A stretch of DNA of 64,000 nt from Escherichia coli (GTDB lineage Bacteria > Pseudomonadota > Gammaproteobacteria > Enterobacterales > Enterobacteriaceae): assembly GCF_003019035.1 (NCBI RefSeq), contig NZ_CP027447.1. One strand, 5' to 3'. The notes beneath the pieces are model-generated. The model was not told where the DNA came from, ran no database searches, and saw only the letters and a program-made list of their open reading frames with translations. Below are positions 4,597 through 63,067 of the stretch, piece after piece. Made by a program: the position numbers and the translations under genes. How positions within the stretch are numbered: position 1 is the first letter of the stretch; each line of letters starts with the position of its first letter.

Positions 4597-5892
4597 TTAC
4601 AGCGGATAATGCGCGAAGTACACGGCTTGCTGGTCATTAATTTTCTTCTCTTGCGCAAACCCTTCTTTAACAATTGTCCGTAAATCAGCTCGAGCCGTAT
4701 TATCAGAGACGCCCAGGCTCGCGCTAATTTCAGCAACTGTGTACTCTTTCCCCGGATTGGCGAGCATCACATTCAGGAGCGTTACCTGGCGCGGATTCAG
4801 GCGTTTAAGCACACCAGAGCTAAACAGCACACTATCGAGTTTTGCGCTTCGTTGTGTAATTTCATCGATATGCTGCTGCCAGTTTTGCAGAGCACGTTTA
4901 ATGACACCCGCCTGATATTCAAGGAAATAAGTCAGATCCATACCATCTGATTCAGTGTACTGGTAGCTGGCGGCATATTTGACCGGTGCAGCATGAAGCA
5001 AACGGCTGATGGAAATATATTTAAAGACATCGTAGCCCGATTTCAGCATATACCAGTAAAACAGCGCCCGACTGGTGCGCCCGTTGCCATCCCGAAACGG
5101 ATGTTCATGGGCCAGCATAAAATGCAGAATGCAGGCACGGACCAACGGATGAATATACCCTTCATGGCTGTTTAACCACTGGCAAACTTTTTCCAGCCGT
5201 TCCGGTAACAATGCCGCAGCGGGCGGTTGATGCACTATACTGCCATCATAGTCGGCGATCACAACATCATCTGTTTCACGAAATTCTCCCGGACGATATT
5301 TCGCGTCATTGATTCCACCCATACCAATGGCATGTAACTGGCGAATAAGCGCAGGTGTCAGCGGTTCTGCGAGTAAGTGCGGAATTTCCGCCATCAGCCG
5401 GGCATTTCCCGCAATCATATGCTCGTCTTCAGTGCGTGGCGACCGCCCTGTTTCCAGCATTTTTCTCGCCACCAGCGTTGTAGTATTCGCACCCTCCAGC
5501 TGGGAGCTGGTGATCGGCTCTTCCAGGCGTAACTGGCTTAACTCGGCTCCGGCCCCGCGTAACCGTTCAGTCTGATCTTTCAGCGCCAGCGCGGTAGCAC
5601 GTTTGTCGACAAGCTCGCACGCTTCTGCAATCACCGGGGTAATGTTGAATCCGGCCTGTTCACCCGCTTCATTGCAATAATTAATTCGTTGGATCGCCGC
5701 GTTGCGCGCCAGACGGGTAAGCGTCCACGCCACATCGACGTTTTCTCCTTTTTTGATGCGGTACTGCAACTCATCAAAAGGCAGATAACGTCCTTTTTCA
5801 TCGGTAACCCGGTTAAAGCGCAGGTGGGCCAGGAGTTCCTCACCCGATAAGTGTGATAAAGGAATAAGTCCGGGAGGTGATTTGATAGCCAT
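4597..5892 (-). CDS. Fic-domain protein (putative AMPylase) with N-terminal inhibitory-helix motif and C-terminal winged-helix-like domain
   Basis: The canonical Fic motif [12 protein letters not shown] lies at about residues 263-274. An (S/T)xxxE(G/N) motif, SSQLEG, lies at about residues 129-134, as in class II autoinhibited Fic proteins. The C-terminal segment [28 protein letters not shown] looks HTH-like. Confidence 0.85.
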
Positions 5893-7363: not shown

Positions 7364-9208
7364 TTATTTTTCCGGAAATAATAATGCGTCGCGCAATAAA
7401 TGATCATTTCCACGACGACGCGTAAAGCCAATGCGGTCAAAATATTCCAGAATCTGAATTGCCAGCTTTCGGCCTACGCCTAAGCGATCGCGGAAATCCG
7501 CCGCGCAGGTTGAACCACACTCCTGATCGAGATCGCGGATCATATTGGCAAATTCGACAATCCGATCGTTACGGTAATAACGATCTTTAACGATCGCGGT
7601 AATTATCCCCTGCTGCGCCGCCTGGCGTAGAGTCAGGCGCATTGCCTGCTCGTCGGTTCCCGTCTCTTTTGCCAGATCACGCACCCACCACGGTTCGTCA
7701 CCAAACAGCGGCTCTGCTTTTTGCCAGATGGCCTGCTGCTCTTCGCTGAAGCCCGCTTTGTGATCCGGCAGATGCAGCCAGCCGTGATGACTGAGGATGT
7801 CGCCGCTTTCGCGCATCTTTTCAATCAGCAACAGTACCAGCGCTTCATCTTCCATTGGCAACGCCATACGTCGCAGACGTTCGCGCCCAGGACCAGGCTC
7901 ATCGCGATGTTGCTCATGATAAGTCGCTAATGTGTCGATAATTTTCCGCTGCCAGCGGGCGGCAACTGGCGCATTCAACAAGCTGTAACCAGCCTGAATA
8001 TAGCCAGGCTGTTGCAGCAGTTCGCGCATCCCTTCGCCGTTGAGCTGCCGTGCCCAGGCGAAATCCGCAAGGTTAACCGCGCCGCGTTCCAGATGAACAG
8101 ATAACGCATCGGCATCGCTCTGCGCCCGTGCAAGAGACGCCAGCCATTGCAGATATTCCGGCTTACGCTTACCGCGACGCGGCGGGTTAAGCATCACCAC
8201 ACGCGCCCCCGCCAGCGTGTTGCGGGCCGAGATATCGCGCAGCACTATGCGATCGTTATCCGCCAGCCACAGCGGCGTGTCGAACACCAGCTCGGCAAGG
8301 TTATCTTCCAGCAGCGAAACGCGTCCCGTAACGTGGCTGGCGGCGTGGTGAATATGCAGCGGCTGCCACTGGGTCAGCGGTGTATGGGTTTGAAGCTCAA
8401 CTATCACCCGCGTAAACGGCTCCGGCGGCGCATCGGCAAGCAACCAGTCGCCACGGTTAATCTGTTCTTTTTCCGCATCACCCGCGATGTTAAGCGCAAT
8501 ACGCTGCCCGGCATGAGCTGCATCTGTTGGCTGATTTTGCGCATGTAGCGCACGCACGCGCATCGGTTTATTTACACCAGTCAGCCAGATTGAATCGCCT
8601 ACCTTCACTTCCCCGCTTAACGCCGTACCGGTGACGACCAGCCCGGCACCTTTTACGGTAAATGCGCGGTCGATCGCGAGGCGGAAACTATGTTGGCTGG
8701 CGTGTTCGCGTTCTGGTAACTGAAGCAGATGCTCGCGCAGGGCATCAATTCCCCGACCTTCGGTTGCTGCGGTGATAAACAGTTTTGCCTCAGCAAAACC
8801 GTATTCCCGCAGCACCTCCTTTACCTGGCGTTCAACCTCATCAACACGCGCTTCGTCCACGCGATCGGCTTTGGTCAGCGCCACTGTCAGCATCGGATTA
8901 CCGGTCAGCTGCAAAATCGCCAGATGCTCACGGGTCTGTGCCATCACGCCGTCATCGCACGCCACCACCAACAGCGCGTGATCGATACCACCAACGCCCG
9001 CCAGCATGTTGGAAAGAAACTTTTCATGACCGGGTACGTCGATAAAACCAGGCACGCGACCATCCGGCTGCGGCCAGTAGGCATAGCCGAGATCGATGGT
9101 CATGCCGCGCTTTTTTTCTTCCGGCAGACGGTCGGCATTTACGCCAGTAATCGCCTGCAATAAGGTTGTTTTGCCGTGGTCAACGTGTCCGGCAGTCGCA
9201 ATAATCAT
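7364..9208 (-). CDS. selB: Selenocysteine-specific translation elongation factor SelB
   Basis: 614 aa, [22 protein letters not shown]. It has GTPase G motifs ([12 protein letters not shown]) and a long C-terminal winged-helix extension. It overlaps selA by 4 nt. Confidence 0.95.
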
Positions 9209-10596
9209 TTCAACAACATCTCCAAAAACCGTTGCTCATCTTCAAGGCAGCGTAAATCCAGCCACAATCGTCCGTCATAAATACGACCAATCACCGGCAC
9301 TGGCAATTCACGCCAGCGGGCGGCTAATGACTCAAGGTGGCTACCGCGTCCATCATGGGGTGTAAACGTTAATGCCGCGCTCGGCAGGCGATCAACCGGC
9401 AGCGAACCACTGCCAATCTGCGAAAGACATGGCATAACCTGTACCGCAAACTCCGCGCCGTAATGTGCGGCAAGGGGAGCCTGTAAACGTTGTGCCTGGA
9501 TTTGAATGACCTCTGCGCTGCGGGTAAGCAGGCGCAGGGTCGGTAATTTTTTACTCAGAGCTTCAGGGTGTAAATAAAGACGCAACGTGGCTTCCAGCGC
9601 CGCAAGGGTCATTTTATCCGCGCGTAATGCACGCTTCAGCGGGTGGCTTTGCAGGCGGGCGATCATCTCTTTTTTACCAACGATAATCCCTGCCTGCGGC
9701 CCGCCTAACAACTTGTCGCCGGAGAAACTCACCAGACTGACGCCCGCCGCAATCAACTCCTGCGGCATTGGCTCTTTCGGCAAACCGTACTGGCTAAGAT
9801 CGACCAGCGAGCCACTGCCTAAATCAGTCACCACGGGAATATCCAGTTCTTTGCCAAGCGCCACCAGTTCAGCTTCGTCTATCGCTTTGGTGAACCCCTG
9901 AATGCTGTAGTTACTGGTATGTACTTTCATCAACAGTGCGGTATTTTCATTCACCGCCTGACGATAATCATTCGCGTGCGTGCGGTTGGTGGTCCCTACT
10001 TCGTGTAGGGTGCAGCCTGCCTGACGCATAACATCGGGAATACGAAACGCGCCGCCAATCTCCACCAGTTCGCCGCGAGAAACCACCACCTCTTTCCCGC
10101 TGGCAGTGGCCGCCAACATCAATAACACCGCCGCCGCATTGTTATTAACGATACAGGCATCTTCCGCCCCCGTAATACGGCACAGCAGCTGCGCCAGCGC
10201 ACGATCGCGATGTCCGCGTCCGGCGTCGTCCAGATCGTACTCGAGGGTCACTGGCGAACGCATAGCCTTCGTAACGGCTTCCACCGCGGCTTCCGCCTGT
10301 AAAGCTCGCCCAAGGTTGGTATGCAGCACGGTTCCCGTCAGGTTGATCACCGGACGCAGCGCGCTTTGCGCCTCTTTCGTCAACCGGGCATCAACTTCTT
10401 GCGCCCAGTTTTCACACCATGCGGGCAGCGTCTGGCTGCCACGAATCACTTCTCGCGCTTCGTCGAGCATCTGACGCAACAATTCCACCACGCGGGTGTG
10501 ACCATAAGTATCACGCAAAGAAAGGAAGGAGCTATCGCGCAATAAGCGATCAATAGCCGGAAGTTGACTATAGAGGGAACGCGTTTCGGTTGTCAT
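9205..10596 (-). CDS. selA: L-seryl-tRNA(Sec) selenium transferase SelA
   Basis: 463 aa, [21 protein letters not shown].... It contains the PLP-lysine region [13 protein letters not shown] and sits in the selAB operon arrangement. Confidence 0.95.
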
Positions 10597-10693: not shown

Positions 10694-11302
10694 TCAAGCC
10701 TTTGGCGGTTCGGTGCGAGCAAAACTTTCGCGGCTAAAGAGGTTTTCGACCAGTTTGACTAAGTGTGGGCGGTCGACACACCAGCCTGGCGCAACGCGGC
10801 GGAAATTGAGATATCCAACGGCACAGGCAATGGCGATAGTCGCCAGATTGACCGTATCGGTTTTGAGCGTGCCATCGACCAGATATCCTTCCAGCACATC
10901 CAGACTGCGGTTGATTTTCTCCCGCTGGCGTAACAATTCATCTTCAGACTGCTGCGCCGCCGGACGCGCCTGTTCACGCACCGATACCAGCCCGGCATCC
11001 ATAATGCCATCCGCCAGCGCCTCAATTTTGCGCACCCGCAACGACTCCAGCGGATCACGCGGCAACATCGCCGGAGCAACATTCATTAATTCAATATATT
11101 CGGCGATGATCGGCGAATCAAACCAGCATTCGCCCTCTTCGGTCACCAGCACCGGCACTTTTCCTAACGGGTTAAATTGCGCCACGCCGTTATCCGCGTT
11201 ATAGGGCAGTTCATTAATAAATTCGAAAGTTATGCCCTTTTCTAACAACAGAATAGAAAGTTTGCGTACAAACGGGCTGGTGTAGCTACCGACGAGTTTC
11301 AT
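10694..11302 (-). CDS. yibF: Glutathione S-transferase-like protein YibF
   Basis: 202 aa, [24 protein letters not shown].... It has a GST N-terminal thioredoxin-like motif. Its position between selA and rhs matches K-12. Confidence 0.9.
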
Positions 11303-11530: not shown

Positions 11531-14500
11531 ATGAGCGGAAAACCGGCGGCGCGTCAGGGCGACATGACGCAGTATGGCGGTAGCATTGTTCAGGGTTCTG
11601 CCGGGGTGCGTATTGGTGCCCCCACCGGTGTGGCCTGTTCGGTGTGCCCCGGCGGGGTGACGTCCGGCCATCCGGTCAATCCGCTGCTGGGTGCAAAGGT
11701 CCTTCCCGGCGAAACCGACCTTGCCCTGCCCGCCCCGCTGCCGTTCATTCTCTCCCGCACCTACAGCAGTTACCGGACAAAAACGCCCGCGCCGGTGGGG
11801 AGCCTCGGCCCCGGCTGGAAAATGCCTGCGGATATCCGCTTACAGCTGCGCGATAACACTCTGATACTCAGTGATAACGGCGGCAGAAGCCTGTATTTTG
11901 AGCACCTGTTTCCCGGTGAGGACGGTTACAGCCGCAGCGAGTCACTCTGGCTGGTGCGCGGCGGCGTGGCGAAACTGGATGAAGGTCACCGGCTGGCCGC
12001 ACTCTGGCAGGCGCTGCCGGAAGAGCTTCGCCTGAGTCCGCATCGTTATCTGGCGACGAACAGTCCACAGGGGCCGTGGTGGGTACTCGGCTGGTGTGAG
12101 CGGGTGCCGGAGGCGGAGAAGGCCACTTCCGGCGGGACGGAACCGTCCGCTTTTCCTGATACCCTGCCGGGTTACACCGAATATGGCCGGGACAACGGCA
12201 TCCGTCTGTCTGCCGTGTGGCTGACGCACGACCCGGAATACCCGGAGAATTTACCTGCCGCGCCGCTGGTGCGCTATGGCTGGACGCCACGCGGCGAACT
12301 GGCGGTGGTGTATGACCGCAGCAATACACAGGTGCGCAGCTTTACTTACGATGATAAATACCGGGGCCGGATGGTGGCGCACCGCCGCGCGGGCCGGCCG
12401 GAAATCCGTTACCGTTACGACAGCGACGGGCGGGTGACAGAACAGCTAAACCCGGCAGGCTTAAGCTACACGTATCAGTATGAGAAAGACCGCATCACCA
12501 TCACCGACAGCCTGGACCGCCGTGAAGTGCTGCACACGCAGGGCGAAGGCGGGCTGAAGCGGGTGGTGAAAAAGGAACACGCGGACGGCAGCGTCACGCA
12601 GAGTCAGTTTGACGCGGTGGGCAGGCTTAAGGCACAGACGGATGCCGCAGGCCGGACGACTGAGTACAGCCCGGATGTGGTGACGGGACTCATCACGCGC
12701 ATCACCACGCCGGATGGCAGGGCATCGGCGTTTTACTATAACCACCACAACCAGTTAACGTCAGCCACCTGGCCTGACGGGCTGGAAATACGCCGGGAAT
12801 ATGATGAATCCGGCCGTCTGATTCAGGAAACCGCACACAACGGCGATATCACCCGCTACCGTTATGATAATCCACACAGTGACTTCCCCTGCGCAACGGA
12901 CGATGCCACCGGCAGCCGGAAAACCATGACGTGGAGCCGTTACGGTCAGTTGCTGACCGTCACTGACTGTTCCGGTTATGTAACCCGTTATGACCATGAC
13001 CGCTTCGGGCAGATGACGGCGGTGCACCGCGAGGAAGGCCTGAGCCAGTACCGCGCATACGACAGCCGTGGACAGTTAATTGCGGTGAAAGACACGCAGG
13101 GCCATGAAACGCGGTATGAATACAACGCCGCCGGTGACCTGACCGCCGTCATTGCCCCGGACGGCAGCAGAAACGGGACACAGTACGATGCGTGGGGAAA
13201 GGCCGTCCGTACCACGCAGGGCGGGCTGACCCGCAGTATGGAATACGATGCTGCAGGACGGGTCATCCGCCTGACAAACGAAAATGGCAGCCACACCACC
13301 TTCCGTTACGATGTACTCGACCGGCTGATACAGGAAACCGGCTTTGACGGCCGCGCACAGCGTTATCACCACGACCTGACCGGCAAACTTATCCGCAGCG
13401 AGGATGAGGGGCTGGTCACCCACTGGCACTATGACGAAGCAGACCGCCTCACGCAGCGCACCGTGAATGGCGAAACCGCAGAGCGGTGGCAGTATGACGA
13501 ACGCGGCTGGCTGACAGGCATCAGCCATCTCAGCGAAGGGCACCGGGTGACGGTGCATTACAGGTATGATGAGAAAGGCCGCCTGACCGGTGAGCGCCAG
13601 ACGGTGCATCACCCGCAGACGGAAGCACTGCTCTGGCAGCATGAAACCAGACATGCGTACAACGCGCAGGGGCTGGCGAACCGCTGTATACCGGACAGCC
13701 TGCCCGCCGTGGAATGGCTGACTTATGGCAGTGGTTACCTGGCAGGGATGAAGCTGGGTGACTCGCCCCTGGTGGAGTACACCCGCGACCGCCTGCACCG
13801 GGAAACGCTGCGCAGCTTCGGCCGTTATGAACTCACCACCGCTTATACCCCTGCCGGGCAGTTACAGAGCCAGCACCTGAACAGCCTGCAGTATGACCGC
13901 GATTACACCTGGAACGACAACGGCGAACTCATTCGCATCAGCAGCCCGCGCCAGACCCGGAGTTACAGCTACAGCGACTCCGGCAGGCTGACCGGCGTTC
14001 ACACCACCGCAGCGAACCTGGATATCCGCATCCCGTATGCCACGGACCCGGCAGGTAACCGCCTGCCCGACCCGGAGCTGCACCCGGACAGCACCCTCAG
14101 CATGTGGCCGGATAACCGTATCGCCCGTGACGCGCACTATCTTTACCGGTATGACCGTCACGGCAGGCTGACGGAGAAAACCGACCTCATCCCGGAAGGG
14201 GTTATCCGCACGGATGATGAGCGGACTCACCGGTACCATTACGACAGCCGGCACCGGCTGGTGCACTACACGCGGACACAATATGCAGAGCCGCTGGTCG
14301 AAAGTCGCTATCTTTACGACCCGCTGGGCCGCAGGGTGGCAAAACGGGTATGGCGACGTGAACGGGACCTGACGGGCTGGATGTCGCTGTCACGGAAACC
14401 GGAAGTGACCTGGTACGGCTGGGACGGCGACCGGCTGACCACGATACAGAACGACAGAACCCGCATCCAGACGATTTATCAGCCGGGGAGCTTCACGCCA

Positions 14501-15571
14501 CTCATCAGGGTCGAAACCGCCACCGGTGAGCTGGCGAAAACGCAGCGCCGCAGCCTGGCGGATGCGCTTCAGCAGTCCGGCGGCGAAGACGGTGGTGATG
14601 TGGTGTTCCCGCCGGTGCTGGTGCAGATGCTCGACCGGCTGGAAAGTGAAATCCTGGCTGACCGGGTGAGTGAGGAAAGCCGCCGCTGGCTGGCATCGTG
14701 CGACCTGACGGTGGCGCAGATGCAAAACCAGATGGAACCGGTGTACACGCCGGCGCGAAAAATTCACCTGTACCACTGCGACCATCGCGGCCTGCCGCTG
14801 GCGCTTGTCAGCACGGAAGGGGCAACAGCGTGGTACGCAGAATACGATGAATGGGGCAACCTGCTGAATGAAGAGAACCCGCACCAGCTGCAGCAGCTCA
14901 TCCGCCTGCCGGGTCAGCAGTATGATGAGGAGTCCGGCCTGTATTACAACCGCCACCGCTATTATGACCCGCTGCAGGGGCGGTATATCACTCAGGATCC
15001 GATTGGGCTGAAGGGGGGATGGAACCTGTATGGATATCAATTGAATCCGATATCAGACATCGACCCCCTGGGTTTATCTATGTGGGAGGATGCAAAATCG
15101 GGGGCATGTACTAATGGTCTTTGCGGCACACTATCCGCTATGATAGGTCCAGATAAGTTTGATTCTATAGATAGCACCGCATATGACGCCTTAAATAAAA
15201 TAAATAGCCAATCTATTTGCGAAGATAAAGAGTTCGCTGGTTTAATATGTAAGGATAATAGTGGCAGATATTTCTCAACAGCACCTAACCGAGGGGAAAG
15301 AAAAGGATCATATCCATTCAATAGCCCTTGCCCTAATGGTACTGAGAAAGTATCAGCTTATCATACTCATGGTGCAGATAGTCATGGAGAATATTGGGAC
15401 GAAATATTTTCAGGCAAAGATGAGAAAATAGTTAAAAGTAAAGATAACAATATCAAGTCATTTTATTTGGGCACGCCCAGTGGTAATTTTAAAGCAATAG
15501 ATAACCACGGGAAGGAAATAACAAACGGAAAAGGATTACCTAATGTCTGCAGAGTTCATGGTAATATGTAA
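11531..15571 (+). CDS. rhsA: Full-length Rhs polymorphic toxin at the rhsA locus: PAAR-like N-terminus, YD-repeat shell, DPLGL boundary, AT-rich C-terminal tip
   Basis: 1346 aa. The N-terminal [17 protein letters not shown]...GVRIG is PAAR-like. There are many YD repeats (YRYD, YEYN, YDAAGR...). The core ends [10 protein letters not shown] (DPLGL at 15062..15076). The tip from 15077..15571 shows an abrupt drop in GC. The yibF-rhs-yibA synteny defines the locus. Confidence 0.9.
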
Positions 15572-15926
15572 AAAAATATTGTTTAGGAACTGTGTCATTG
15601 TATCTTTGTTTGTTTTTACATACAACACATGGGCGCAGTGTAATAATAATATTAAAATAATGCGCAAGTATGAAAGTGAGGGTAAATATACCGTTAGAAA
15701 TTTGGTTAAAAATAAAGCTATAGCATTGGAATTAGCTGAGATATATGTTAAGAATCGTTATGGGCAGGATGCCGCAGAAGAAGAAAAACCATATAAAATC
15801 ACTGAGTTAACAACAAGTTGGGTTGTTGAAGGCACCATTCACTCAGACCAAATTGCTGGTGGGGTTTTTATTATAGAAATAGGCAAAAATGATGGGGGAA
15901 TTCTGAATTTTGGCCACGGAAAATAA
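15543..15926 (+). CDS. Rhs immunity protein candidate, YbbC-like (NTF2-fold immunity family)
   Basis: It lies immediately downstream of, and overlaps, the rhs tip. [33 protein letters not shown]...[22 protein letters not shown] closely resembles my recollection of K-12 YbbC (the rhsD-locus immunity). The N-terminus is hydrophobic. The real start may be the Met at 15558. Confidence 0.7.
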
Positions 15927-16030
15927 GTATGTAAGGATAATCAAACATCGTGTGCGCTGATGGCAGAGTAGGTGGAGGACTCCAGACAGTCAAACGATAA
16001 AAAAAGATAGCCTTTATGGAGGTTCCTGCA

Positions 16031-16873
16031 ATGTCAAATACATACCAGAAAAGAAAGGCAAGTAAAGAGTATGGTTTATATAATCAATGTAAGAAACTAA
16101 ATGATGATGAATTATTTCGCTTACTTGATGATCACAATTCCTTGAAAAGGATTTCATCTGCCAGAGTATTACAGTTAAGAGGTGGGCAAGACGCTGTTAG
16201 ATTGGTAATTGAGTTCTGCTCTGATAAAAATTATATCCGTAGAGATATCGGAGCATTTATACTCGGGCAAATAAAAATTTTCAAAAAATGCGAAGATAAT
16301 GTGTTTAATATTTTGAACAATATGGCATTGAATGATAAGAGCGCTTGCGTTCGAGCTACGGCAATCGAGTCAACGGCTCAGCGATGCAAGAAAAACCCAA
16401 TTTATTCACCTAAAATAGTAGAACAATCTCAAATTACTGCTTTTGATAAATCGACTAATGTCAGACGTGCTACAGCATTTGCTATTTCTGTTATCAATGA
16501 TAAAGCAACAATTCCACTATTGATTAATCTGTTAAAAGATCCAAATGGAGATGTCAGAAACTGGGCCGCATTTGCAATAAATATCAATAAATATGATAAT
16601 AGTGATATTAGGGATTGTTTTGTGGAGATGCTTCAGGATAAAAATGAGGAAGTCCGTATTGAAGCAATAATCGGACTTTCCTACAGAAAAGATAAAAGGG
16701 TTTTATCTGTTTTATGCGATGAGTTAAAAAAAAATACTGTTTATGATGATATCATTGAAGCTGCGGGTGAATTAGGTGATAAAACGCTACTTCCTGTTTT
16801 AGATACTATGTTGTACAAGTTTGATGACAATGAAATTATAACTTCCGCTATTGATAAGCTGAAGCGTTCATAG
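16031..16873 (+). CDS. yibA: HEAT-repeat protein YibA
   Basis: 280 aa from MSNTYQKRKASKEYGLYNQCKKLNDDELFRLLDDHNS.... It has repeated DxxVR HEAT-like units (NVRRATAFA, DVRNWAAFA, EVRIEAIIG) and matches K-12 YibA as I remember it. Confidence 0.9.
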   Translation: MSNTYQKRKASKEYGLYNQCKKLNDDELFRLLDDHNSLKRISSARVLQLRGGQDAVRLVIEFCSDKNYIRRDIGAFILGQIKIFKKCEDNVFNILNNMALNDKSACVRATAIESTAQRCKKNPIYSPKIVEQSQITAFDKSTNVRRATAFAISVINDKATIPLLINLLKDPNGDVRNWAAFAININKYDNSDIRDCFVEMLQDKNEEVRIEAIIGLSYRKDKRVLSVLCDELKKNTVYDDIIEAAGELGDKTLLPVLDTMLYKFDDNEIITSAIDKLKRS

Positions 16874-16900
16874 CGTGAGTTGCCTATGCACAGTGGGGTA

Positions 16901-17040
16901 TTCCCGCCGGCACGGTGCAGATGCTCGATCGGCTGGAAAGTGAAATCCTGGCTGACCGGGTGAGTGAGGAAAGCCGCCGCTGGCTGGCATCGTGCGGCCT
17001 GACGGTGGCGCAGATGAAAAAACAGATGGAACCGGTGTAC
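16901..17040 (+). pseudogene. 5' remnant of an orphan rhs core fragment, truncated by IS insertion
   Basis: Nearly identical to 14606..14746 of the main rhs (...[42 protein letters not shown]). It has no start codon or upstream core and stops abruptly at the IS left end. Confidence 0.8.
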
Positions 17041-18332
17041 CAGGGAAAGATCACGTAACGCTGCTTTTTTGTACTAAACAATTCGCATTTTATGTTTAAA
17101 AATTGAGATATTCCTCATTACCTGAAGCTGTTTTTTATTGCTTATACATGATCAAATACTCCTTACATAATTAAGGAGAACAAAATGGTACTTAAAAAAT
17201 TGATGGAACATATTTCTATTATCCCCGATTACAGACAAGCCTGGAAAGTGGAACATAAATTATCGGATATTCTACTGTTGACTATTTGCGCCGTTATTTC
17301 GGGTGCAGAAGGTTGGGAAGATATAGAGGATTTTGGGGAAACACATCTCGATTTTTTGAAGCAATATGGTGATTTTGAAAATGGTATTCCTGTTCACGAT
17401 ACCATTGCCAGAGTTGTATCCTGTATCAGTCCTGCAAAATTTCACGAGTGCTTTATTAACTGGATGCGTGACTGCCATTCTTCAGATGATAAAGGCGTCA
17501 TTGCAATTGATGGAAAAACGCTCCGGCACTCTTATGACAAGAGTCGCCGCAGGGGAGCGATTCATGTCATTAGTGCGTTCTCAACAATGCACAGTCTGGT
17601 CATCGGACAGATCAAGACGGATGAGAAATCCAATGAGATTACAGCTATCCCGGAACTTCTTAACATGCTGGATATTAAAGGAAAAATCATCACAACTGAT
17701 GCGATGGGTTGCCAGAAAGATATTGCAGAGAAGATACAAAAACAGGGAGGTGATTATTTATTCGCTGTAAAAGGAAACCAGGGGCGGCTAAATAAAGCCT
17801 TCGAGGAAAAATTTCCGCTGAAAGAATTAAATAATCCAGAGCATGACAGTTACGCAATTAGTGAAAAGAGTCACGGCAGAGAAGAAATCCGTCTTCACAT
17901 TGTCTGCGATGTCCCTGATGAACTTATTGATTTCACGTTTGAATGGAAAGGTCTGAAGAAATTATGCGTGGCAGTCTCCTTTCGGTCAATAATAGCAGAA
18001 CAAAAGAAAGAGCCCGAAATGACGGTCAGATATTATATCAGTTCTGCTGATTTAACCGCAGAGAAGTTCGCCACAGCAATCCGAAACCACTGGCACGTGG
18101 AGAATAAGCTGCACTGGCGTCTGGACGTGGTAATGAATGAAGACGACTGCAAAATAAGAAGAGGAAATGCAGCAGAATTATTTTCAGGGATACGGCACAT
18201 CGCTATTAATATTTTGACGAATGATAAGGTATTCAAGGCAGGGTTAAGACGTAAGATGCGAAAAGCAGCCATGGACAGAAAGTATCTGGCGTCAGTCCTT
18301 GCGGGGAGCGGGCTTTCGTAATCTTTCCCTGC
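17041..18332 (+). mobile_element. ISAs1-family insertion sequence (Rhs-associated H-repeat element)
   Basis: Terminal inverted repeats are CAGGGAAAGATCACGTAA (left) and TTTCGTAATCTTTCCCTG (right). A single 378-aa transposase ORF is present. It is flanked by a direct duplication of ccggtgtac (17032..17040 and 18333..18341). Confidence 0.85.
17185..18321 (+). CDS. ISAs1-family DDE transposase (H repeat-associated protein, YhhI-like)
   Basis: 378 aa, [51 protein letters not shown].... This is the typical H-repeat-associated protein N-terminus and length. The [16 protein letters not shown] and [10 protein letters not shown] motifs are present. Confidence 0.9.
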
Positions 18333-19109
18333 CCGGTGTACACGCCGGCGCGAAAAATCCACCTGTACCACTGCGACCATCGCGGCCTGCCGCTGGTGCT
18401 TATCAGCACGGAAGGGGCAACAGCGTGGTACGCAGAATATGATGAATGGGGCAACCTGCTGAATGAAGAGAACCCGCACCAGCTGCAGCAGCTCATCCGC
18501 CTGCCGGGTCAGCAGTATGATGAGGAGTCCGGCCTGTATTACAACCGCCACCGCTATTATGACCCGCTGCAGGGGCGGTATATCACTCAGGATCCAATTG
18601 GGCTGAAGGGGGGATGGAATTTTTATCAGTATCCGTTGAATCCGATAACTGATATTGACCCGTTGGGATTAGCGACCTGTTTATACAGCATAACTTTAGG
18701 TATGCTTTCATGCGTTTCAGATACGCCAAGTGATGATAATTCTTATGGTGTGCTTACTATTTCAGTCGCCTCTGATAATAATGGTAATAATATGCAATGT
18801 AAAAATAATCCTGGTTGTACACACTTACAAAATAGAGGCCCAATACCTCAAGGGGTATGGAGCTGGAATGTTAATGGTCCTGGAGCAACCAATAGAAAAC
18901 CTAATGGTATACGTTTAGTACCGTCAGCAAATACAGAAACGTATAATCGTGATGGATTTTTAACACATAGTTGTTTAAACGCTTTTGGTCCATCTTTAGG
19001 ACCTCGATTCTGTTCCGAGGGTTGTATAACTGGTTCATCTAATGACATGCAAAAATTAAATGAGCTAATATTTTCAGAGCCAGATAGCACATTAACAGTG
19101 ACGGACTAG
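18333..19109 (+). pseudogene. Orphan Rhs C-terminal module: core 3' fragment plus divergent toxin tip (Tlde1/YkuD-like motif pattern)
   Basis: 18342..about 18625 is nearly identical to 14747..about 15030 of the main rhs. DPLGL lies at 18657..18671. The AT-rich tip spans 18672..19109 and contains [11 protein letters not shown] and THS-x14-SEGCITG. There is no ribosome-binding context or ATG of its own; the ORF-track start is a GTG inside the core reading frame. Confidence 0.75.
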
Positions 19110-19113
19110 AAAT

Positions 19114-19635
19114 ATGGCAAGGTTATTAACAATTGTGCTTTTTTTCTCTATTTCTGCGAATGCAGTTACTGTAAACCAATTTCAGAGAGAGTTGGATTTG
19201 GCAGACAAGGCAATATTATGGGCACTAATATCAGCCAGTACCCAAGAGGGACGAAAAGCGTGTTCACTTAGCTATTTTTCATGTAAAGCCGCAGAGGCTG
19301 AACTCGGACTGGCATATATGGCTGCTAATGATAACAAGGCATTTCTCACATCCTTATCTAGAATAATGATGTACAAAATAGATGCTGGACTTTCCGAATC
19401 CTATACATGCTATTTATTAAGCAAGGGAAAGATCATAAGACCATATCTGAAGAATCTAAATCCACACCAACTTGTCGCTGATTGCATTGAAACTGTAAAT
19501 AAAATAAAAGATAAAAATAAAAAAATCATTGATATAGATTCAGTTAATATTTGCAATGATAATAAAAATATAAATTGGAGAGTTAATAGTACTATTGTAG
19601 CCATTGATGATTCTATAAAATGCATCGATGAATAA
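19114..19635 (+). CDS. Candidate immunity protein for the orphan tip, with Sec-type signal peptide
   Basis: It starts 4 nt after the orphan tip stop. It is 173 aa and AT-rich. The N-terminus MARLLTIVLFFSISANA|VTV has n/h/c regions and an AxA cleavage motif. I recognise no family. Confidence 0.65.
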   Translation: MARLLTIVLFFSISANAVTVNQFQRELDLADKAILWALISASTQEGRKACSLSYFSCKAAEAELGLAYMAANDNKAFLTSLSRIMMYKIDAGLSESYTCYLLSKGKIIRPYLKNLNPHQLVADCIETVNKIKDKNKKIIDIDSVNICNDNKNINWRVNSTIVAIDDSIKCIDE

Positions 19636-19796: not shown

Positions 19797-20084
19797 GTGA
19801 CTGTCATCCTTCAGATAATAAAGCCATCATCGCAATAGATGGAAAAGCACTCCTGCTCTTTTTTGATTAGAGCCGTGGCAGAGGAACAACTCATATCATC
19901 ATTGCGATCTCGACAATGTATAGTCTGATCCTTCGGCAGATCAAGACGGATAAAAATCCAATGAGTTCACACTCATCCCGAACTTCTTAACATAATGGAT
20001 ATTAACGAAAAATCATCACAGCCGATGAAATAATATGCAAAAATAATTAGTCCTTGCAGGGAGCAAAGTTCCATAATCTCCCCC
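19797..20084 (+). mobile_element. Decayed, internally deleted ISAs1-family (H-repeat) remnant
   Basis: 19797..20027 aligns by eye with 17469..about 17707 of the intact IS, with many substitutions and frame disruptions. 20047..20084 aligns with the IS right end (ttagtccttgcagggagcaaagttccataatctcccc versus tcagtccttgcggggagcgggctttcgtaatctttccc). The middle part of the IS is missing. Confidence 0.7.
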
Positions 20085-20091
20085 GCCCCCC

Positions 20092-21228
20092 TCAATGATC
20101 CAAATAAAGATAATGCATCCAGCTGGTCATTCTTAGCAGCACTTTCCGCATCACCGAAACATGGCTGAAATGGTCGGAGTAAACTGCCACCTGGGCGTAG
20201 ATGCCGTCGGGTAAAGCATCGATATCATCGTTAGGGTCCAGTTCAATGGTTCCCAGCACACCGTCCGTGCCGGGCACGACCGTTAATGATTGCAATACCC
20301 CTTGCGCCTGATACGAACCGCCTGGCACGACAGGTAAAATACTAGTCAGTTTGCCGTGGAACACCTGCCCAGGTAGCGCGTTAAACACCACTTCCGCATC
20401 ATCGCCGGGTTTCAGACGTAACAGCGAGTTCTGCCGAAATTGGGCGACAATTTGCCGTTTTTGCTCGGGGATGAAAACCATCACCGGACGTAGCGGCAAG
20501 GCAGCTGCGTATGTACCTGGGCGGATCAGTACCTGAGTGACGTAGCCATTGCTCGGTGCGCGAATGACAGTCTGCTCAAGGTTATATTTTGCTTCAGTAA
20601 GTTGCGCTCTTAAGCTCACAATCTGCGACTGCTCGCCGTTAACCATACTGTCGAGCTGGCTCTGGATCTGCGCCTGCTCCGCCACCGAGCCTTTCACCAG
20701 CGCGTCCTGCGCGAGGAAGTTTTGCCGCGCATCGTCGATGTCACGTTCCGAGAACGGATTCACTGCCGCCTGGCTGCCTATCAGGTAACGTTGATAATTT
20801 TTAAACAGACGGTCGCGCTCCGCTGAAACCTGGGTGGTGTTGGCCTGCGCTTCAGTGAGCTGCGCGCGCAGCGTCTTTATATTATGCGTCGCCGTCATCA
20901 GGTCAGCCTGAAGTCTGTCAACTCGCGCCTGGTAACGAACCGGGTCGAGCTTAAAAAGCACCTCGCCCTTCTGAATAAGCTGATTATTTTTGTCGGTGAC
21001 TTCAGTAACAATTCCCGTCACCTGTGGCGTGATGGGGATCGCTATCACTGCCTTTTGCGCGGTAAAAGTGTAAGGGTGGTTGTAGTTCATCAACAAAATC
21101 AAACCACTCACCAGAAACACGCCTCCCAGCGCCGCCGTCGCCAGCGTCCACTGATTTACCGGAATGCGGAAGATTTTAAAGACCGCCCACGCCAGCGCCA
21201 CGTAAGTTAAAACAATCAATAGATCCAT
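20092..21228 (-). CDS. yibH: HlyD-family membrane fusion/secretion protein YibH
   Basis: 378 aa. It has an N-terminal TM helix, a coiled-coil central part ([24 protein letters not shown]) and a beta-barrel C-terminus typical of HlyD/EmrA-like proteins. Pairing with yibI matches K-12. Confidence 0.85.
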
Positions 21229-28023: not shown

Positions 28024-31000
28024 ATGAACAAAATTTTTAAAGTTATCTGGAATCCAGCGACGGGCAGTTACAGCGTTGCCAGCGAAACGGCGAAAAGTCG
28101 TGGGAAGAAGAGCGGGCGCAGTAAGCTGTTAATTTCTGCACTGGTTGCGGGTGGATTATTGTCGTCATTTGGGGCATTAGCTCAGGCAGGGTTAGATACA
28201 GGTACTGGTGTTACCCCTGCTGGTCATAATAATGGAACAGGTTGGATAGCTATTGGTACCGATGCTGAAGCAAGCACTCATACCACAACGAATGGCGCAG
28301 CAACTGCCGTGGGCTACTACTCCAAAGCGTTAGGTATGTGGAGTACTACGTTAGGTGCATATAGCCAATCGAATGGCGATTCTTCACTGGCTCTTGGGGT
28401 TAAAGCACAATCTAACGGTGACCGCTCTATTTCGATGGGCGCTTCGTCGAGTGCAAGCATAAATGCGGGTTACTCCATCGCGATGGGGGTATTTGCTTTC
28501 ACCGATGCAGAGTACGCGGTAGCCCTTGGCAATGAGAGCAAGGCACTTGGTAAATACAGCCTTGCATTAGGAAACGCAAGTCAGGCATCTGGCGAATCCA
28601 GTATTGCATTAGGTAACACAAGTGAAGCCAGCGAACAAAATGCGATTGCGCTGGGGCAAGGCAGCATTGCAAGCAAAGTGAACTCAATCGCGTTGGGCAG
28701 TAACAGTTCGTCTGCAGGAGAGAATGCCATCGCGCTAGGAGAGGGCAGTGCCGCGGGAGGCAGCAACAGTCTAGCTTTCGGTAGTCAGTCCAGGGCAAGC
28801 GGCAATGATTCTGTCGCCCTCGGTGTAGGGGCTACAGCAGCGACCGACAATTCTGTCGCTATCGGCGCAGGATCGACCACAGATGCAAGCAATACAGTTT
28901 CAGTTGGCAACAGCACAACAAAACGCAAAATTGTTAATATGGCTGCCGGTGCCATAAGCAACACCAGTACCGATGCCATCAACGGCTCACAGCTTTATAC
29001 GATCAGTGATTCAGTCGCCAAACGGCTCGGGGGAGGCGCTACTGTAGGCAGCGACGGCACCGTAACCGCACTAAGCTACGCGTTGAAAAGCGGTACCTAT
29101 AATAACGTGGGTGATGCTCTGTCAGGAATCGACAATAATACTCTGCAATGGAATAGAACCACGGGGGCATTCACCGCTGCACACGGCTCAAATACCACCA
29201 GTAAAATCACTAATGTTGCTAAAGGTACTGTTTCTGCAACCAGCACCGATGTAGTAAACGGCTCTCAATTGTACGACCTGCAGCAGGATGCTCTGTTGTG
29301 GAACGGCACCGCGTTCAGCGCCGCACACGGCACCGACGTCACCAGCAAAATCACCAATGTCACCGCTGGTGAGCTCTCTGACACCAGCACCGACGCCGTC
29401 AACGGTTCTCAGCTGAAAGCGACCAAGGACGATGTAGCGGCAAACACCACCAACATCACTAACCTGACGAGCGAAGTGGCTGGCAACACCACCAGTATCA
29501 CTAACCTGACTGATACGGTGACTAACCTCGGTGAAGACGCCCTGAAATGGGACGACGCCGCAGGCGCATTCACCGCTGCACACGGCACTAACGCCACCAA
29601 CAAAATCACTAACGTCACCGCTGGTGAGCTCTCTGACACCAGCACCGACGCCGTCAACGGTTCTCAGCTGAAAGCGACCAAGGACGATGTGGCGGCAAAC
29701 ACCACCAACATCACTAACCTGACGGGCGAAGTGGCTGGCAACACCACCAGTATCACCAACCTGACTGATACGGTGACTAACCTCGGTGAAGACGCCCTGA
29801 AATGGGACGACGCCTCAGGCGCATTCACCGCTGCACACGGCACTAACGCCACCAACAAAATCACCAATGTCACCGCTGGCGAACTCTCTGATACCAGCAC
29901 CGACGCCGTCAACGGTTCTCAGCTGAAAACCACCAACGATAACGTGGCGACCAACACCACCAATATCGCCACTAACACCACCAATATCACCAACCTGACT
30001 GACGCTGTTGACAGTCTCGGTGATGATTCCCTGCTGTGGAACAAAGCGGCTGGCGCATTCAGCGCCGCGCACGGCACCGATGCCACCAGCAAAATCACCA
30101 ACGTCACCGCTGGCGAACTCTCTGATACCAGCACCGACGCCGTCAACGGTTCTCAGCTGAAAACCACCAACGATAACGTGGCGACCAACACCACCAATAT
30201 CGCCACTAACACCACCAATATCACCAACCTGACTAACGCTGTTGACAGTCTTGGTGATGATTCCCTGCTGTGGAACAAAGCGGCTGGCGCATTCAGCGCC
30301 GCGCACGGCACCGATGCCACCAGCAAAATCACCAACGTCACCGCTGGCGACCTGACTGCTGGCAGCACTGACGCGGTTAACGGCTCCCAGCTGAAAACCA
30401 CCAACGATAACGTGGCGACCAACACCACCAATATCGCCACTAACACCACCAATATCACTAACCTGACTGATACGGTGAATAATCTCGGTGAAGACGCCCT
30501 GAAATGGGACGACGCCGCAGGCGCATTCACCGCTGCACACGGTACTAACGCCACCAACAAAATCAGCAACGTACAAGCTGGCATAGTCTCCTCTGACAGC
30601 ACTGACGCCATAAATGGCTCACAACTATATGGTTTGGCTGATTCATTCACGTCCTATCTGGGTGGTGGTGCTGATATTAGCGATACAGGTTTATTAACCG
30701 GGCCAACCTATAGTATTGGCGGCACTGACTACACTAACGTCGGGGATGCTCTGGCCGCAATTAACACTTCATTTAGTGATTCTCTCGGTGATGCCCTGCT
30801 CTGGGATGCGACAGCCAATGACGGTGCTGGTGCATTCAGCGCCGGTCGCGGGGTAGATAACACCGCCAGTAAGATTACTAACGTCGCAAATGGTGCAATC
30901 TCTGCCACCAGCAGCGACGCGATTAACGGCTCACAACTCTATACCACCAATAAGTACATCGCTGATGCGCTGGGCGGTGATGCAGAAGTTAACGCTGACG

Positions 31001-32970
31001 GCACTATCACTGCGCCGACTTACACCATTGCAAATACCGATTACAACAACGTCGGTGAAGCTCTGGATGCGCTTGATGAGAACGCGCTGATGTGGGATGC
31101 GACCGCCAATAACGGCGAAGGGGCTTACAACGCCAGTCATGACGGCAAGGCCAGCATTATCACAAACGTTGCTGATGGTAACATTGGTGAAGGTAGCACC
31201 GATGCTATCAACGGTTCTCAGCTGTTTAACACCAATATGCTGATCCAGCAGAACAGCGAAGTCATCAATCAGCTTGCCGGTAACACCAGTGAAACCTACA
31301 TCGAAGAAAATGGTGCAGGTATTAACTATGTGCGTACCAATGACACCGGTTTAACCTTCACCGATGCCAGCGCACAGGGTGTTGGCGCTACAGCAGTGGG
31401 TTATAACTCTGTTGCCAAAGGCGATAGCAGCGTGGCCATGGGTTATAACTCTTTTGCCGAAGGCGATAGCAGCGTGGCCATGGGTCAGGGCAGCTACAGC
31501 GACGTTGATACGGGTATCGCTCTGGGTAGCAGTTCCGTTTCCAGCCGTGTAATAGTTAAAGGGTCTCGTGACACCAGCGTGTCAGAAGAAGGTGTTGTGA
31601 TTGGTTATGACACCACGGACGGCGAACTGCTTGGTGCATTGTCGATCGGTGATGATGGTAAATATCGTCAAATCATCAACGTCGCGGATGGTTCCGAAGC
31701 CCATGACGCTGTTACTGTTCGCCAGTTGCAAAACGCCATTGGTGCAGTAGCAACCACACCAACCAAATACTATCACGCCAACTCAACGGCTGAAGACTCA
31801 CTGGCAGTCGGTGAAGACTCGCTGGCAATGGGCGCGAAAACCATCGTTAATGGTAATGCGGGTATTGGTATCGGCCTGAACACGCTGGTTCTGGCTGATG
31901 CGATCAATGGTATTGCTATCGGTAGCAACGCAAGTGCAAACCATGCAAACAGCATTGCAATGGGGAATGGTTCTCAGACTACCCGTGGTGCGCAGACCAA
32001 CTACACCGCCTACAACATGGACGCACCGCAGAACTCTGTGGGTGAGTTCTCTGTCGGCAGTGAAGACGGTCAACGTCAGATCACCAACGTCGCAGCAGGT
32101 TCGGCTGATACCGATGCGGTCAACGTGGGTCAATTGAAAGTAACGGACGCGCAGGTTTCCCAGAATACCCAGAGTATTACTAACCTGAACAATCAGGTGA
32201 CGAATCTGGATACTCGCGTTACCAATATCGAAAACGGCATTGGCGATATCGTAACCACCGGTAGCACCAAATACTTCAAGACCAACACCGATGGCGTAGA
32301 TGCCAACGCGCAGGGTAAAGACAGTGTTGCGATTGGTTCTGGTTCCATTGCTGCCGCTGACAACAGCGTCGCGCTGGGTACCGGTTCCGTGGCCAACGAA
32401 GAAAATACCATCTCTGTGGGTTCTTCTACCAACCAGCGTCGTATCACCAACGTTGCTGCAGGTGTTAATGCCACCGATGCGGTTAACGTTTCGCAGCTGA
32501 AGTCTTCTGAGGCAGGCGGCGTTCGTTACGACACCAAAGCTGATGGTTCTATAGACTACAGCAACATCACTCTCGGTGGTGGTAATGGCGGTACGACTCG
32601 CATCAGCAACGTCTCCGCTGGCGTCAACAACAACGACGCAGTGAACTATGCGCAGTTGAAGCAAAGCGTGCAGGAAACGAAGCAATACACCGATCAGCGG
32701 ATGGTTGAGATGGATAACAAACTGTCCAAAACCGAAAGCAAGTTGAGCGGTGGTATCGCTTCTGCAATGGCAATGACCGGTCTGCCGCAGGCTTACACTC
32801 CAGGTGCCAGTATGGCCTCTATTGGTGGCGGTACTTACAACGGTGAATCGGCTGTTGCTTTAGGTGTGTCGATGGTGAGCGCCAATGGTCGTTGGGTCTA
32901 CAAATTACAAGGTAGTACCAATAGCCAGGGTGAATACTCCGCCGCACTCGGTGCCGGTATTCAGTGGTAA
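28024..32970 (+). CDS. upaG: Trimeric autotransporter adhesin, UpaG/EhaG (SadA-like) family
   Basis: 1648 aa. It has an ESPR-type extended signal peptide ([21 protein letters not shown]...), Ala/Ser/Gly/Asn-rich YadA-like head repeats (SIALGxxSxA) and repeated neck/stalk units ([10 protein letters not shown]). The C-terminus is a YadA-type membrane anchor ending [13 protein letters not shown]. The location upstream of lldP fits upaG/ehaG. Confidence 0.9.
29361..30573 (+). repeat. In-frame tandem coding repeats inside the adhesin stalk (2 x 255 bp then 3 x 234 bp)
   Basis: The anchor string caccgctgg(t/c) recurs at 29361, 29616, 29871, 30105 and 30339, giving periods of 255, 255, 234 and 234 nt. 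The final unit runs to about 30573. The encoded units (...[19 protein letters not shown]...NITNLT...[17 protein letters not shown]) are near-identical. Confidence 0.9.
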
Positions 32971-62710: not shown

Positions 62711-62722
62711 CACGCTACCGCC
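62711..62722 (-). promoter_or_regulatory. ops element (RfaH recruitment site) within the JUMPstart leader of the waaQ operon
   Basis: The plus strand reads cacgctaccgcc, so the minus strand reads GGCGGTAGCGTG. This is the canonical ops sequence. It begins 48 nt upstream of the waaQ start. Confidence 0.85.
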
Positions 62723-63067
62723 CCAGGCTCAACAGCTACCCGAATACTGATAACGCACTTACTTTGACGCGCTAGTGTATCATTTCTTTCGCAGCAATCC
62801 GACCCGAATGATTTTTATACACAAAATATGATTTAATTATAAAAATCATATAGATAAAATTTTGTATACAGAGAATCCAGATATTGTCTATGTAAAGTTG
62901 CAATCCTGGCTGAAATTCAATGAATCGCATAAAAATACAAAAAAATGAAGATCTAGCAGCAGATCAGCTCAAACAGAGACTATTTAAGTCAAAAACGGGA
63001 AAAGTAATGGTAAAGCCACAGCTAAATACATAGAATCCCCAGCACATCCATAAGTCAGCTATTTACT

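Follow-up and report, generated by a model that had tools for sequence, protein, structure and literature searches.

Core homology of a full-length rhs gene with a downstream orphan tip/immunity module at the RhsA locus of Escherichia coli

Can a nearly exact copy of the 3' end of an rhs core, lying a few kilobases downstream of the gene it resembles, serve to change the toxin tip which that gene delivers? The question is raised by a stretch of 64,000 nucleotides from Escherichia coli contig NZ_CP027447.1 (assembly GCF_003019035.1; "the window" below means this whole stretch), in which a full-length rhs gene, equipped with a tip and an immunity gene, is followed by an orphan module consisting of a core fragment, a different tip and a second immunity gene, all on the + strand. 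We consider it highly probable that the repeat is core homology which links the full-length gene to a downstream orphan rhs-CT/immunity module and through which the two are able to recombine. The region is the E. coli RhsA locus, with the gene order selB-selA-yibF-rhs-yhhH-yibA-orphan(Tlde1-like tip)-Imm57-yibH; selA-yibF lie to the left of rhs and yibH-yibI-mtlA to the right. Gene assignments were taken from the list of open reading frames (ORFs), Pfam and NCBIfam scans, and the annotation of collinear complete genomes (Table 1).

The repeat and the downstream orphan

The last ~405–426 nt of the main core (14599/14620–15024) recur downstream as two pieces, as found by repeat search, local alignment and position-by-position comparison. 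The left piece (block A) matches 14620–14746 to 16914–17040 over 127 nt at an offset of 2294 with 4 mismatches (96.9% identity), and the right piece (block B) matches 14747–15024 to 18342–18619 over 278 nt at an offset of 3595 with 5 mismatches (98.2% identity), its perfect runs being 155 (14846–15000), 37, 37 and 23 nt long. A sequence-only reading of the window had described this two-piece recurrence by eye and proposed an exact pairwise alignment as a check; the alignment bears the description out, and at these identities the copies are not strongly diverged. Every substitution that it quoted as an example is present (main to orphan: 14703 A>G, 14723 and 14728 C>A, 14802 C>T, 14807 G>A and 14845 C>T), together with others at 14635 C>T, 14764 T>C and 15001 G>A. 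Its coordinates were close to exact, but the start that it gave, 14606 and 16901, lies in a ragged zone: the 5' edge of homology is at ~14599/16894, where the alignment is broken by several mismatches and, near 14619, by an indel of 1 nt, and homology is solid from 14620. It was also right that similarity drops ahead of each DPLGL motif (15062–15076 and 18657–18671). High identity stops at 15024, 12–13 codons before DPLGL; the 52 nt from 15025 to 15076 are 71% identical, with the peptide conserved and the codons diverged; and past DPLGL the main and orphan sequences are 30% identical, which is background.

The orphan has the structural features of an orphan rhs-CT/rhsI module: it is oriented like the main gene, its core fragment has no start, a DPxGL motif is followed by a tip, and joining it to the main core gives an in-frame chimera. 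The core fragment aligns to positions 1151–1261 of the 1,261-position RHS_core profile, with in-frame stop codons upstream, and a Pfam scan of the orphan found no N-terminal domains. After DPLGL come a low-GC tip and then a small ORF, the Imm57 gene, whose product begins, as read by eye, with a signal-peptide-like segment. The GC content of the core (57–66%) against that of the tips and immunity genes (about 32–38%; orphan part after DPLGL 37–45%) is the classical Rhs composition pattern. The region comprising the Tlde1-like tip and Imm57 is found in 3,690 of 5,426 complete E. coli genomes (68%), and in every relative inspected it occupies the distal end, next to yibH, the proximal tips being of different kinds. 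The yhhH-like gene is judged by its position to be the cognate immunity gene of the main tip.

The two downstream pieces are a single orphan core fragment interrupted by an insertion sequence (IS). This IS is 1,291 bp long, has terminal inverted repeats of 25 nt that are 80% identical and start with CAGGG, and encodes a 378-aa DDE transposase of the ISAs1 family (NF033564, 416.6 bits against a cut-off of 70); its name in relatives annotated by the Prokaryotic Genome Annotation Pipeline (PGAP) is ISEc1, and in size, ends, transposase and position inside an Rhs element it resembles the H-rpt/ISEc1 elements of Rhs loci. The intact copy here is an H-rpt element, a type long tied to these loci; H-rpt elements also lie within the RhsB, RhsC and RhsE loci of K-12. 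Members of the ISAs1 family are characterized (ISfinder) by an ISAs1 transposase, terminal inverted repeats and a target duplication of 8–10 bp, and 17041–18331 has all three, the duplicates ACCGGTGTAC (17031–17040) and CCCGGTGTAC (18332–18341) being identical at 9 of 10 positions. Two IS-free relatives, PS10-3 (its locus L008, 7033–7042) and elppa4 (L005), carry CCCGGTGTAC once at the matching empty site and have the yibA-orphan-Tlde1-Imm57 order of the window, minus the IS. The duplication and the empty site in relatives therefore show that the element arrived by simple transposition and duplicated 10 bp of its target, one base of which has changed since. Of the 5,426 complete genomes, SCU-301 alone has both IS junctions as single pieces; it shares 99.7% identity with the window across 12 kb. 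The insertion is recent and lineage-specific. Among the best 60 junction-query matches, at least 11 complete genomes have the two-piece span of ~5.3 kb and the annotation expected of the IS-free arrangement; PS10-3 is the one of these apparent IS-free genomes that was inspected. One genome paper states that H-rpt transposition had never been observed (PMC3032704), and a literature search on ISEc1/ISAs1 transposition returned nothing specific; in contrast to that statement, the clean 10-bp duplication and the empty site in relatives are direct evidence, in the sequence, of a genuine recent transposition of this ISEc1/H-rpt copy, which means that the element is, or recently was, active.

ISAs1/ISEc1 copies adjoin rhs core fragments at no fewer than three other positions or loci in other strains (extracted loci L002, 8521–9945; L009, 4954–6103; and L010, 4428–7131), among them the rpmE-metJ locus and, near ybfD-ybgA, the RhsC region; in some of these cases there is no target duplication and most of the core is gone. 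Such contacts suggest either recurrent IS-associated rearrangement or a possible target preference. That H-rpt elements prefer targets at the rhs core 3' end and thereby tune tip switching, an insertion in the homology tract then being non-neutral, seems to us a long shot; possible ways would be to reduce the length of productive homology, to make one recombination product a dead end, or to have the orphan tip and Imm57 transcribed from the element. A diverged ISAs1-family fragment 3' of Imm57 (19797–20027) recurs in relatives and belongs to the distal part of the locus that is conserved.

The history that best accounts for this arrangement would be as follows. The orphan (~430 nt of core 3' end, the Tlde1-like tip and Imm57) would be an older tip, shunted downstream when a newer one, the DUF4329 tip with yhhH that is a K-12 RhsB-type pair, was installed at the end of the main gene, as the C-terminal displacement model proposes. 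Afterwards, in this lineage, an ISEc1/H-rpt element hopped into the orphan core, with its 10-bp duplication, and cut the homology into stretches of 127 and 278 nt, of which the longer is still fit for RecA-type homologous recombination with the main gene.

Predicted tip exchange and its natural counterparts

A crossover within block B (14747–15024 with 18342–18619) is computed to remove exactly 3,595 bp, namely the main DUF4329 tip, the yhhH-like gene, yibA, the left part of the orphan core and the IS. The offset of 3595 equals 1 modulo 3, which is also the frame difference between the main and orphan ORFs, and the computed chimera is an uninterrupted Rhs protein of 1,327 aa in which the Rhs shell would be fused to the Tlde1-like tip directly upstream of Imm57. 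Block B, 278 nt long, 98.2% identical and with a perfect run of 155 nt, offers ample homology for exchange by RecA (see Lovett 2002, cited in PMC3967940). The repeat, the IS insertion, the frame and natural alleles of both states are seen in the sequences; that such recombination takes place in this strain, that the chimera would be exported and that the tip and Imm57 would act as a toxin–immunity pair we infer. The sequence-only reading had predicted the loss of the main tip, its immunity gene, yibA and the IS, and an in-frame junction; the exact calculation agrees on both counts, adding the left orphan fragment to the loss, with no internal stop in the fused ORF. Of its further claim, that the orphan tip would be placed on a full-length "PAAR-Rhs", the in-frame fusion stands, but the PAAR label has behind it only the literal tetrapeptide, PF05488 being below its cut-off. 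It had also called for a comparison of related genomes for both arrangements, and both are found: fused alleles occur in at least 5 complete genomes, and IS-free parental forms occur as well. Lastly it had put the price of switching at the loss of immunity to the old toxin. The tip and yhhH are single-copy in SCU-301, the nearest complete genome, so that a simple deletion there would remove the only cognate immunity gene, and immunity loss upon switching is plausible, but this one-step price may be avoidable by prior duplication, as it apparently is in Salmonella.

The Salmonella case is that of S. Typhimurium LT2, where rhs-main recombines with rhs-CT-orphan over 522 bp at 95% identity and the chimera that results uses the orphan toxin against cells of the ancestral type (Koskiniemi et al. 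2014, PMC3967940). The recombinant LT2 clones also keep the ancestral locus, which fits a prior duplication that preserves rhsI-main (PMC3967940). Like STM0291 (rhs-main) and STM0292 (rhs-CT-orphan) of LT2, the locus in the window has a full-length rhs with tip and immunity gene followed in the same orientation by an orphan with a different pair, a near-identical direct repeat of the core, and a predicted in-frame fusion that would delete the main immunity gene. It differs from LT2 in that the homology is 278 nt at 98% plus a separate 127 nt, the orphan core is interrupted by an IS, the two modules have an extra gene, yibA, between them, other toxin types are involved, no type VI secretion system (T6SS) is linked in the window, and recombination is here a prediction from the sequence.

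Relatives carry several natural alleles at the same site. The proximal tip is DUF4329/yhhH in the window, LR-28 and PS10-3, rhsC-type with ybfB in EC26, and of other kinds in elppa4; the orphan core is about 80 nt long in LR-28, about 430 nt in the window and 1,047 nt in EC26. Varying proximal tips and varying orphan core lengths are the pattern that C-terminal displacement predicts (PMC2935791). The orphan of elppa4 is frameshifted and has an internal deletion of ~70–85 nt, its Imm57 being frameshifted too, and in LR-28 only ~80 nt of core remain beside an IS that has no target duplication. A full-length rhs fused directly to the Tlde1-like tip, with Imm57, is present at the RhsA locus of 2013C-4282, Ec73552, PE164, F2_81 and E105. 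This count of at least 5 is a lower bound, taken from single-piece matches; the numbers of genomes that cover the synthetic junction queries by at least 80% (925 and 2,274) are not numbers of fusions, since nearby pieces were joined in them, and since the 1.3-kb junction query is covered by long orphans of the EC26 type, with their 1,047-nt core, as well.

In 2013C-4282 the order is selB-selA-yibF, a 1,389-aa Rhs with this tip, Imm57, yibH and yibI, and between its tip and the orphan tip of the window there are two substitutions and an indel of 3 aa. What separates EC26 from 2013C-4282 at the locus is exactly one repeat unit of 1,867 nt, their flanks being 99.5–99.8% identical; in EC26 this unit consists of the main tip, ybfB and 1,048 nt of orphan core, and the main and orphan core copies are identical over the ~405-nt region compared. 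In these two strains nature supplies the orphan-bearing and the fused state as a pair.

The element is of a known kind and its mechanism has already been described; there is no new principle or architecture in it, and what is particular to this locus is a private IS insertion and a private core deletion. The C-terminal displacement model and its "dissociated tips" were set out by Jackson et al. (2009, PMC2935791), citing the Rhs descriptions of the Hill laboratory, and the RhsA locus described there has the same site (yibF / rhs ... yibH), a core rich in GC, tips rich in AT, and downstream a succession of core fragments, each with a tip and a small ORF, the fragments varying in length by strain. 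Against those descriptions, the RhsB-type tip and yhhH at the RhsA locus, the private IS and the private 65-aa deletion discussed below are allelic details. Orphan cdiA-CT/cdiI modules of contact-dependent growth inhibition (CDI) systems (Poole et al. 2011, PMC3150448) are likewise silent downstream cassettes with upstream homology for recombination, but there the delivery protein is the two-partner filament CdiA and the motif is VENN, in contrast to the YD-repeat shell and the DPxGL of Rhs. Orphan rhs tips matter as a reservoir both for changing the deployed toxin and for immunity to the toxins of neighbours. At this one chromosomal site, IS-bearing parental, IS-free parental and fused forms all occur in nature, which makes it a clean textbook case; it is also a possible locus at which to measure how often main and orphan genes of E. 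coli recombine. Annotation can profit in that the pieces of core and the "hypothetical protein" calls surrounding the IS can be read as one interrupted orphan.

Alternative explanations and contrary evidence

That the repeat is a chance similarity or an assembly artefact is practically out of the question: a 35-mer of the repeat block occurs exactly 2 times in the 64-kb window and 0 times in 100 shuffles, the same repeat structure is found in the independent complete assembly SCU-301 and is therefore not an artefact of assembly, and related arrangements are present in thousands of genomes. Very unlikely, too, is the idea that the two downstream pieces stem from different orphans and were joined when two IS copies recombined. 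Genomes of the LR-28 type do have this IS, with no target duplication, between a diverged IS fragment and a truncated core, and IS-associated rearrangements therefore do happen at the locus; in the window, however, the pieces abut exactly in register with a continuous core, the 10-bp duplication (9/10) is of a sequence that is single in IS-free relatives of the same gene order, and the 5' boundary of the orphan and its 1-nt indel are common to IS-free relatives, and we reject this origin on these grounds. Site-specific cassette switching of the shufflon or invertase type was considered as well and rejected, as the sole recombinase-like gene is the IS transposase and the only inverted repeats are the IS ends.

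Two further accounts concern what the repeat and the orphan are good for. By one of them the repeat is the relic scar of a past displacement, with the orphan decaying and no functional tip switching in this lineage, and the IS insertion and the 65-aa deletion in the main gene are steps of that decay. This is possible, though we doubt it. The position of the IS inside the homology tract, the lineage-specific deletion in the main rhs, the degraded state of orphans in relatives such as elppa4 and LR-28, and the lack of secretion machinery within the window all speak for it; yet the orphan tip and Imm57 ORFs are intact, the tip is near-identical to one carried by a full-length Rhs, block B is still long and similar enough for RecA-dependent exchange, and the deletion in the main gene is in frame and leaves its ORF unbroken. 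Such decay is in any case compatible with the orphan-module explanation, since it disputes function and not structure. By the other account the module is retained chiefly for defence, Imm57 guarding against Tlde1-type Rhs toxins of other E. coli and the repeat and silent tip being passengers. We think this rather unlikely as the chief reason for retention, even though the tip and Imm57 are present in over two thirds of complete genomes, Imm57 is kept beside a truncated tip in some of them (matches H93 and H94; LR-28), and full-length Rhs proteins with this tip occur in the species and hence pose a real threat. It leaves unexplained the conserved ~400 nt of core and the intact tip ORF; promoter-like sites between 15500 and 20100 number 17 against 15.1 expected, a chance level that is uninformative on expression of the orphan and Imm57; and ancestral Salmonella cells expressed too little orphan immunity for protection (PMC3967940).

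Several observations weigh against the repeat as a working route to a new, functional toxin. The 278 nt of usable homology amount to about half of what recombines in Salmonella, and a crossover in block A (offset 2,294) would make the main gene run into the IS, a dead product, so that about one third of the original homology now gives an IS-disrupted product. A recombinant junction with the single-nucleotide polymorphisms of this lineage was found in none of the complete genomes, the best match being 98.2% identical, and the natural fused alleles may be ancestral rather than the outcome of deletions. The orphan tip matches PF10908 barely above threshold (31.4 bits against a cut-off of 30.1), and a sequence search of the PDB with it gave no match. 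The catalytic motif of Tlde1 is HXX14-17-(S/T)HGCh (PMC9638812); the corresponding region of the orphan tip, H-x15-SEGCI, keeps the Cys and the first His and has Glu in place of the second His. The 2013C-4282 tip, which is borne by a full-length Rhs, has the identical H-x15-SEGCI.

The main Rhs protein as a delivery platform also gives some ground for caution. It matches RHS_core (NF041261) with 2448 bits against a cut-off of 2000, in two stretches because of an in-frame deletion of 195 nt (65 aa) at 12117 relative to RhsB-type relatives (1,346 against 1,411 aa). The missing segment corresponds to residues 196–260 of the 1,411-aa RhsB-type protein and its loss may have consequences for the shell's N-terminal part; of the 5,426 complete E. 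coli genomes, SCU-301 alone has the deletion junction in a single piece, and this lineage-specific loss could inactivate the platform. A full PAAR domain was not found in the main Rhs (PF05488, 15.4 bits against a cut-off of 27), the partial match placing residues 3–20 on profile positions 52–69 with the PAAR tetrapeptide at residues 5–8, and the annotation of the collinear SCU-301 region shows no T6SS, vgrG, hcp or chaperone genes in the 64-kb window. The closest solved relative of the Rhs shell is the T6SS effector Tse5 (E 1.9e-129).

Coordinates and other features of the window

Table 1. Features of the rhs locus and its immediate flanks, in window coordinates
Feature	Position	Strand	Basis or remark
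selB	7364–9208	-	
selA	9205–10596	-	
yibF	10694–11302	-	
Main rhs, 1,346 aa	11531–15571	+	DUF6531, RHS/YD repeats, RHS-associated core, DPLGL, DUF4329 tip
Repeat copy 1, 3' end of main core	14599–15076	+	Solid homology 14620–15024; diverged 15025–15076; DPLGL 15062–15076
Main toxin tip, DUF4329, low GC (32–36%)	15077–15571	+	PF14220, 1.4e-38
yhhH-like NTF2-fold immunity gene (Imm-NTF2-2)	15543–15926	+	Pfam scan; PGAP name yhhH in relatives
yibA, HEAT-repeat protein	16016–16873	+	Pfam/NCBIfam scans, annotated relative
Orphan core fragment, left part (repeat copy 2a)	16894–17040	+	Without start codon or N-terminal region
Left target-site duplication ACCGGTGTAC	17031–17040	+	Final 10 nt of left orphan core part
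ISEc1/H-rpt element (ISAs1 family), 1,291 bp	17041–18331	+	Transposase ORF 17185–18321
Right target-site duplication CCCGGTGTAC	18332–18341	+	Single copy in IS-free relatives
Orphan core fragment, right part (repeat copy 2b)	18342–18671	+	DPLGL 18657–18671
Orphan toxin tip, Tlde1-like (L,D-transpeptidase-like) domain	18672–19109	+	PF10908, 31.4 bits; ORF intact
Imm57-family immunity gene of orphan tip	19114–19635	+	PF15596, 1.4e-44
Diverged ISAs1-family fragment	19797–20027	+	~79% identical to intact IS
yibH	20092–21228	-	

An Rfam scan of the whole window found nothing within the rhs locus. Matches above the gathering score lie elsewhere: naRNA4 at 1942–2020 (+; 71.6 bits) and a JUMPstart element at 62711–62749 (-; 53.1 bits), the latter at the waa (lipopolysaccharide core) cluster. 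Between aldB and yiaY are a HicA/HicB toxin-antitoxin pair (2063–2675, -) and a 431-aa Fic-family protein (4597–5892, -), both named from the annotation of the collinear SCU-301 region. An ORF for a YadA-like trimeric autotransporter adhesin (28024–32970) encodes 1,648 aa in the window, against 1,570 aa in SCU-301 and 1,909 aa in elppa4, differences that look like length variation of a repetitive adhesin.

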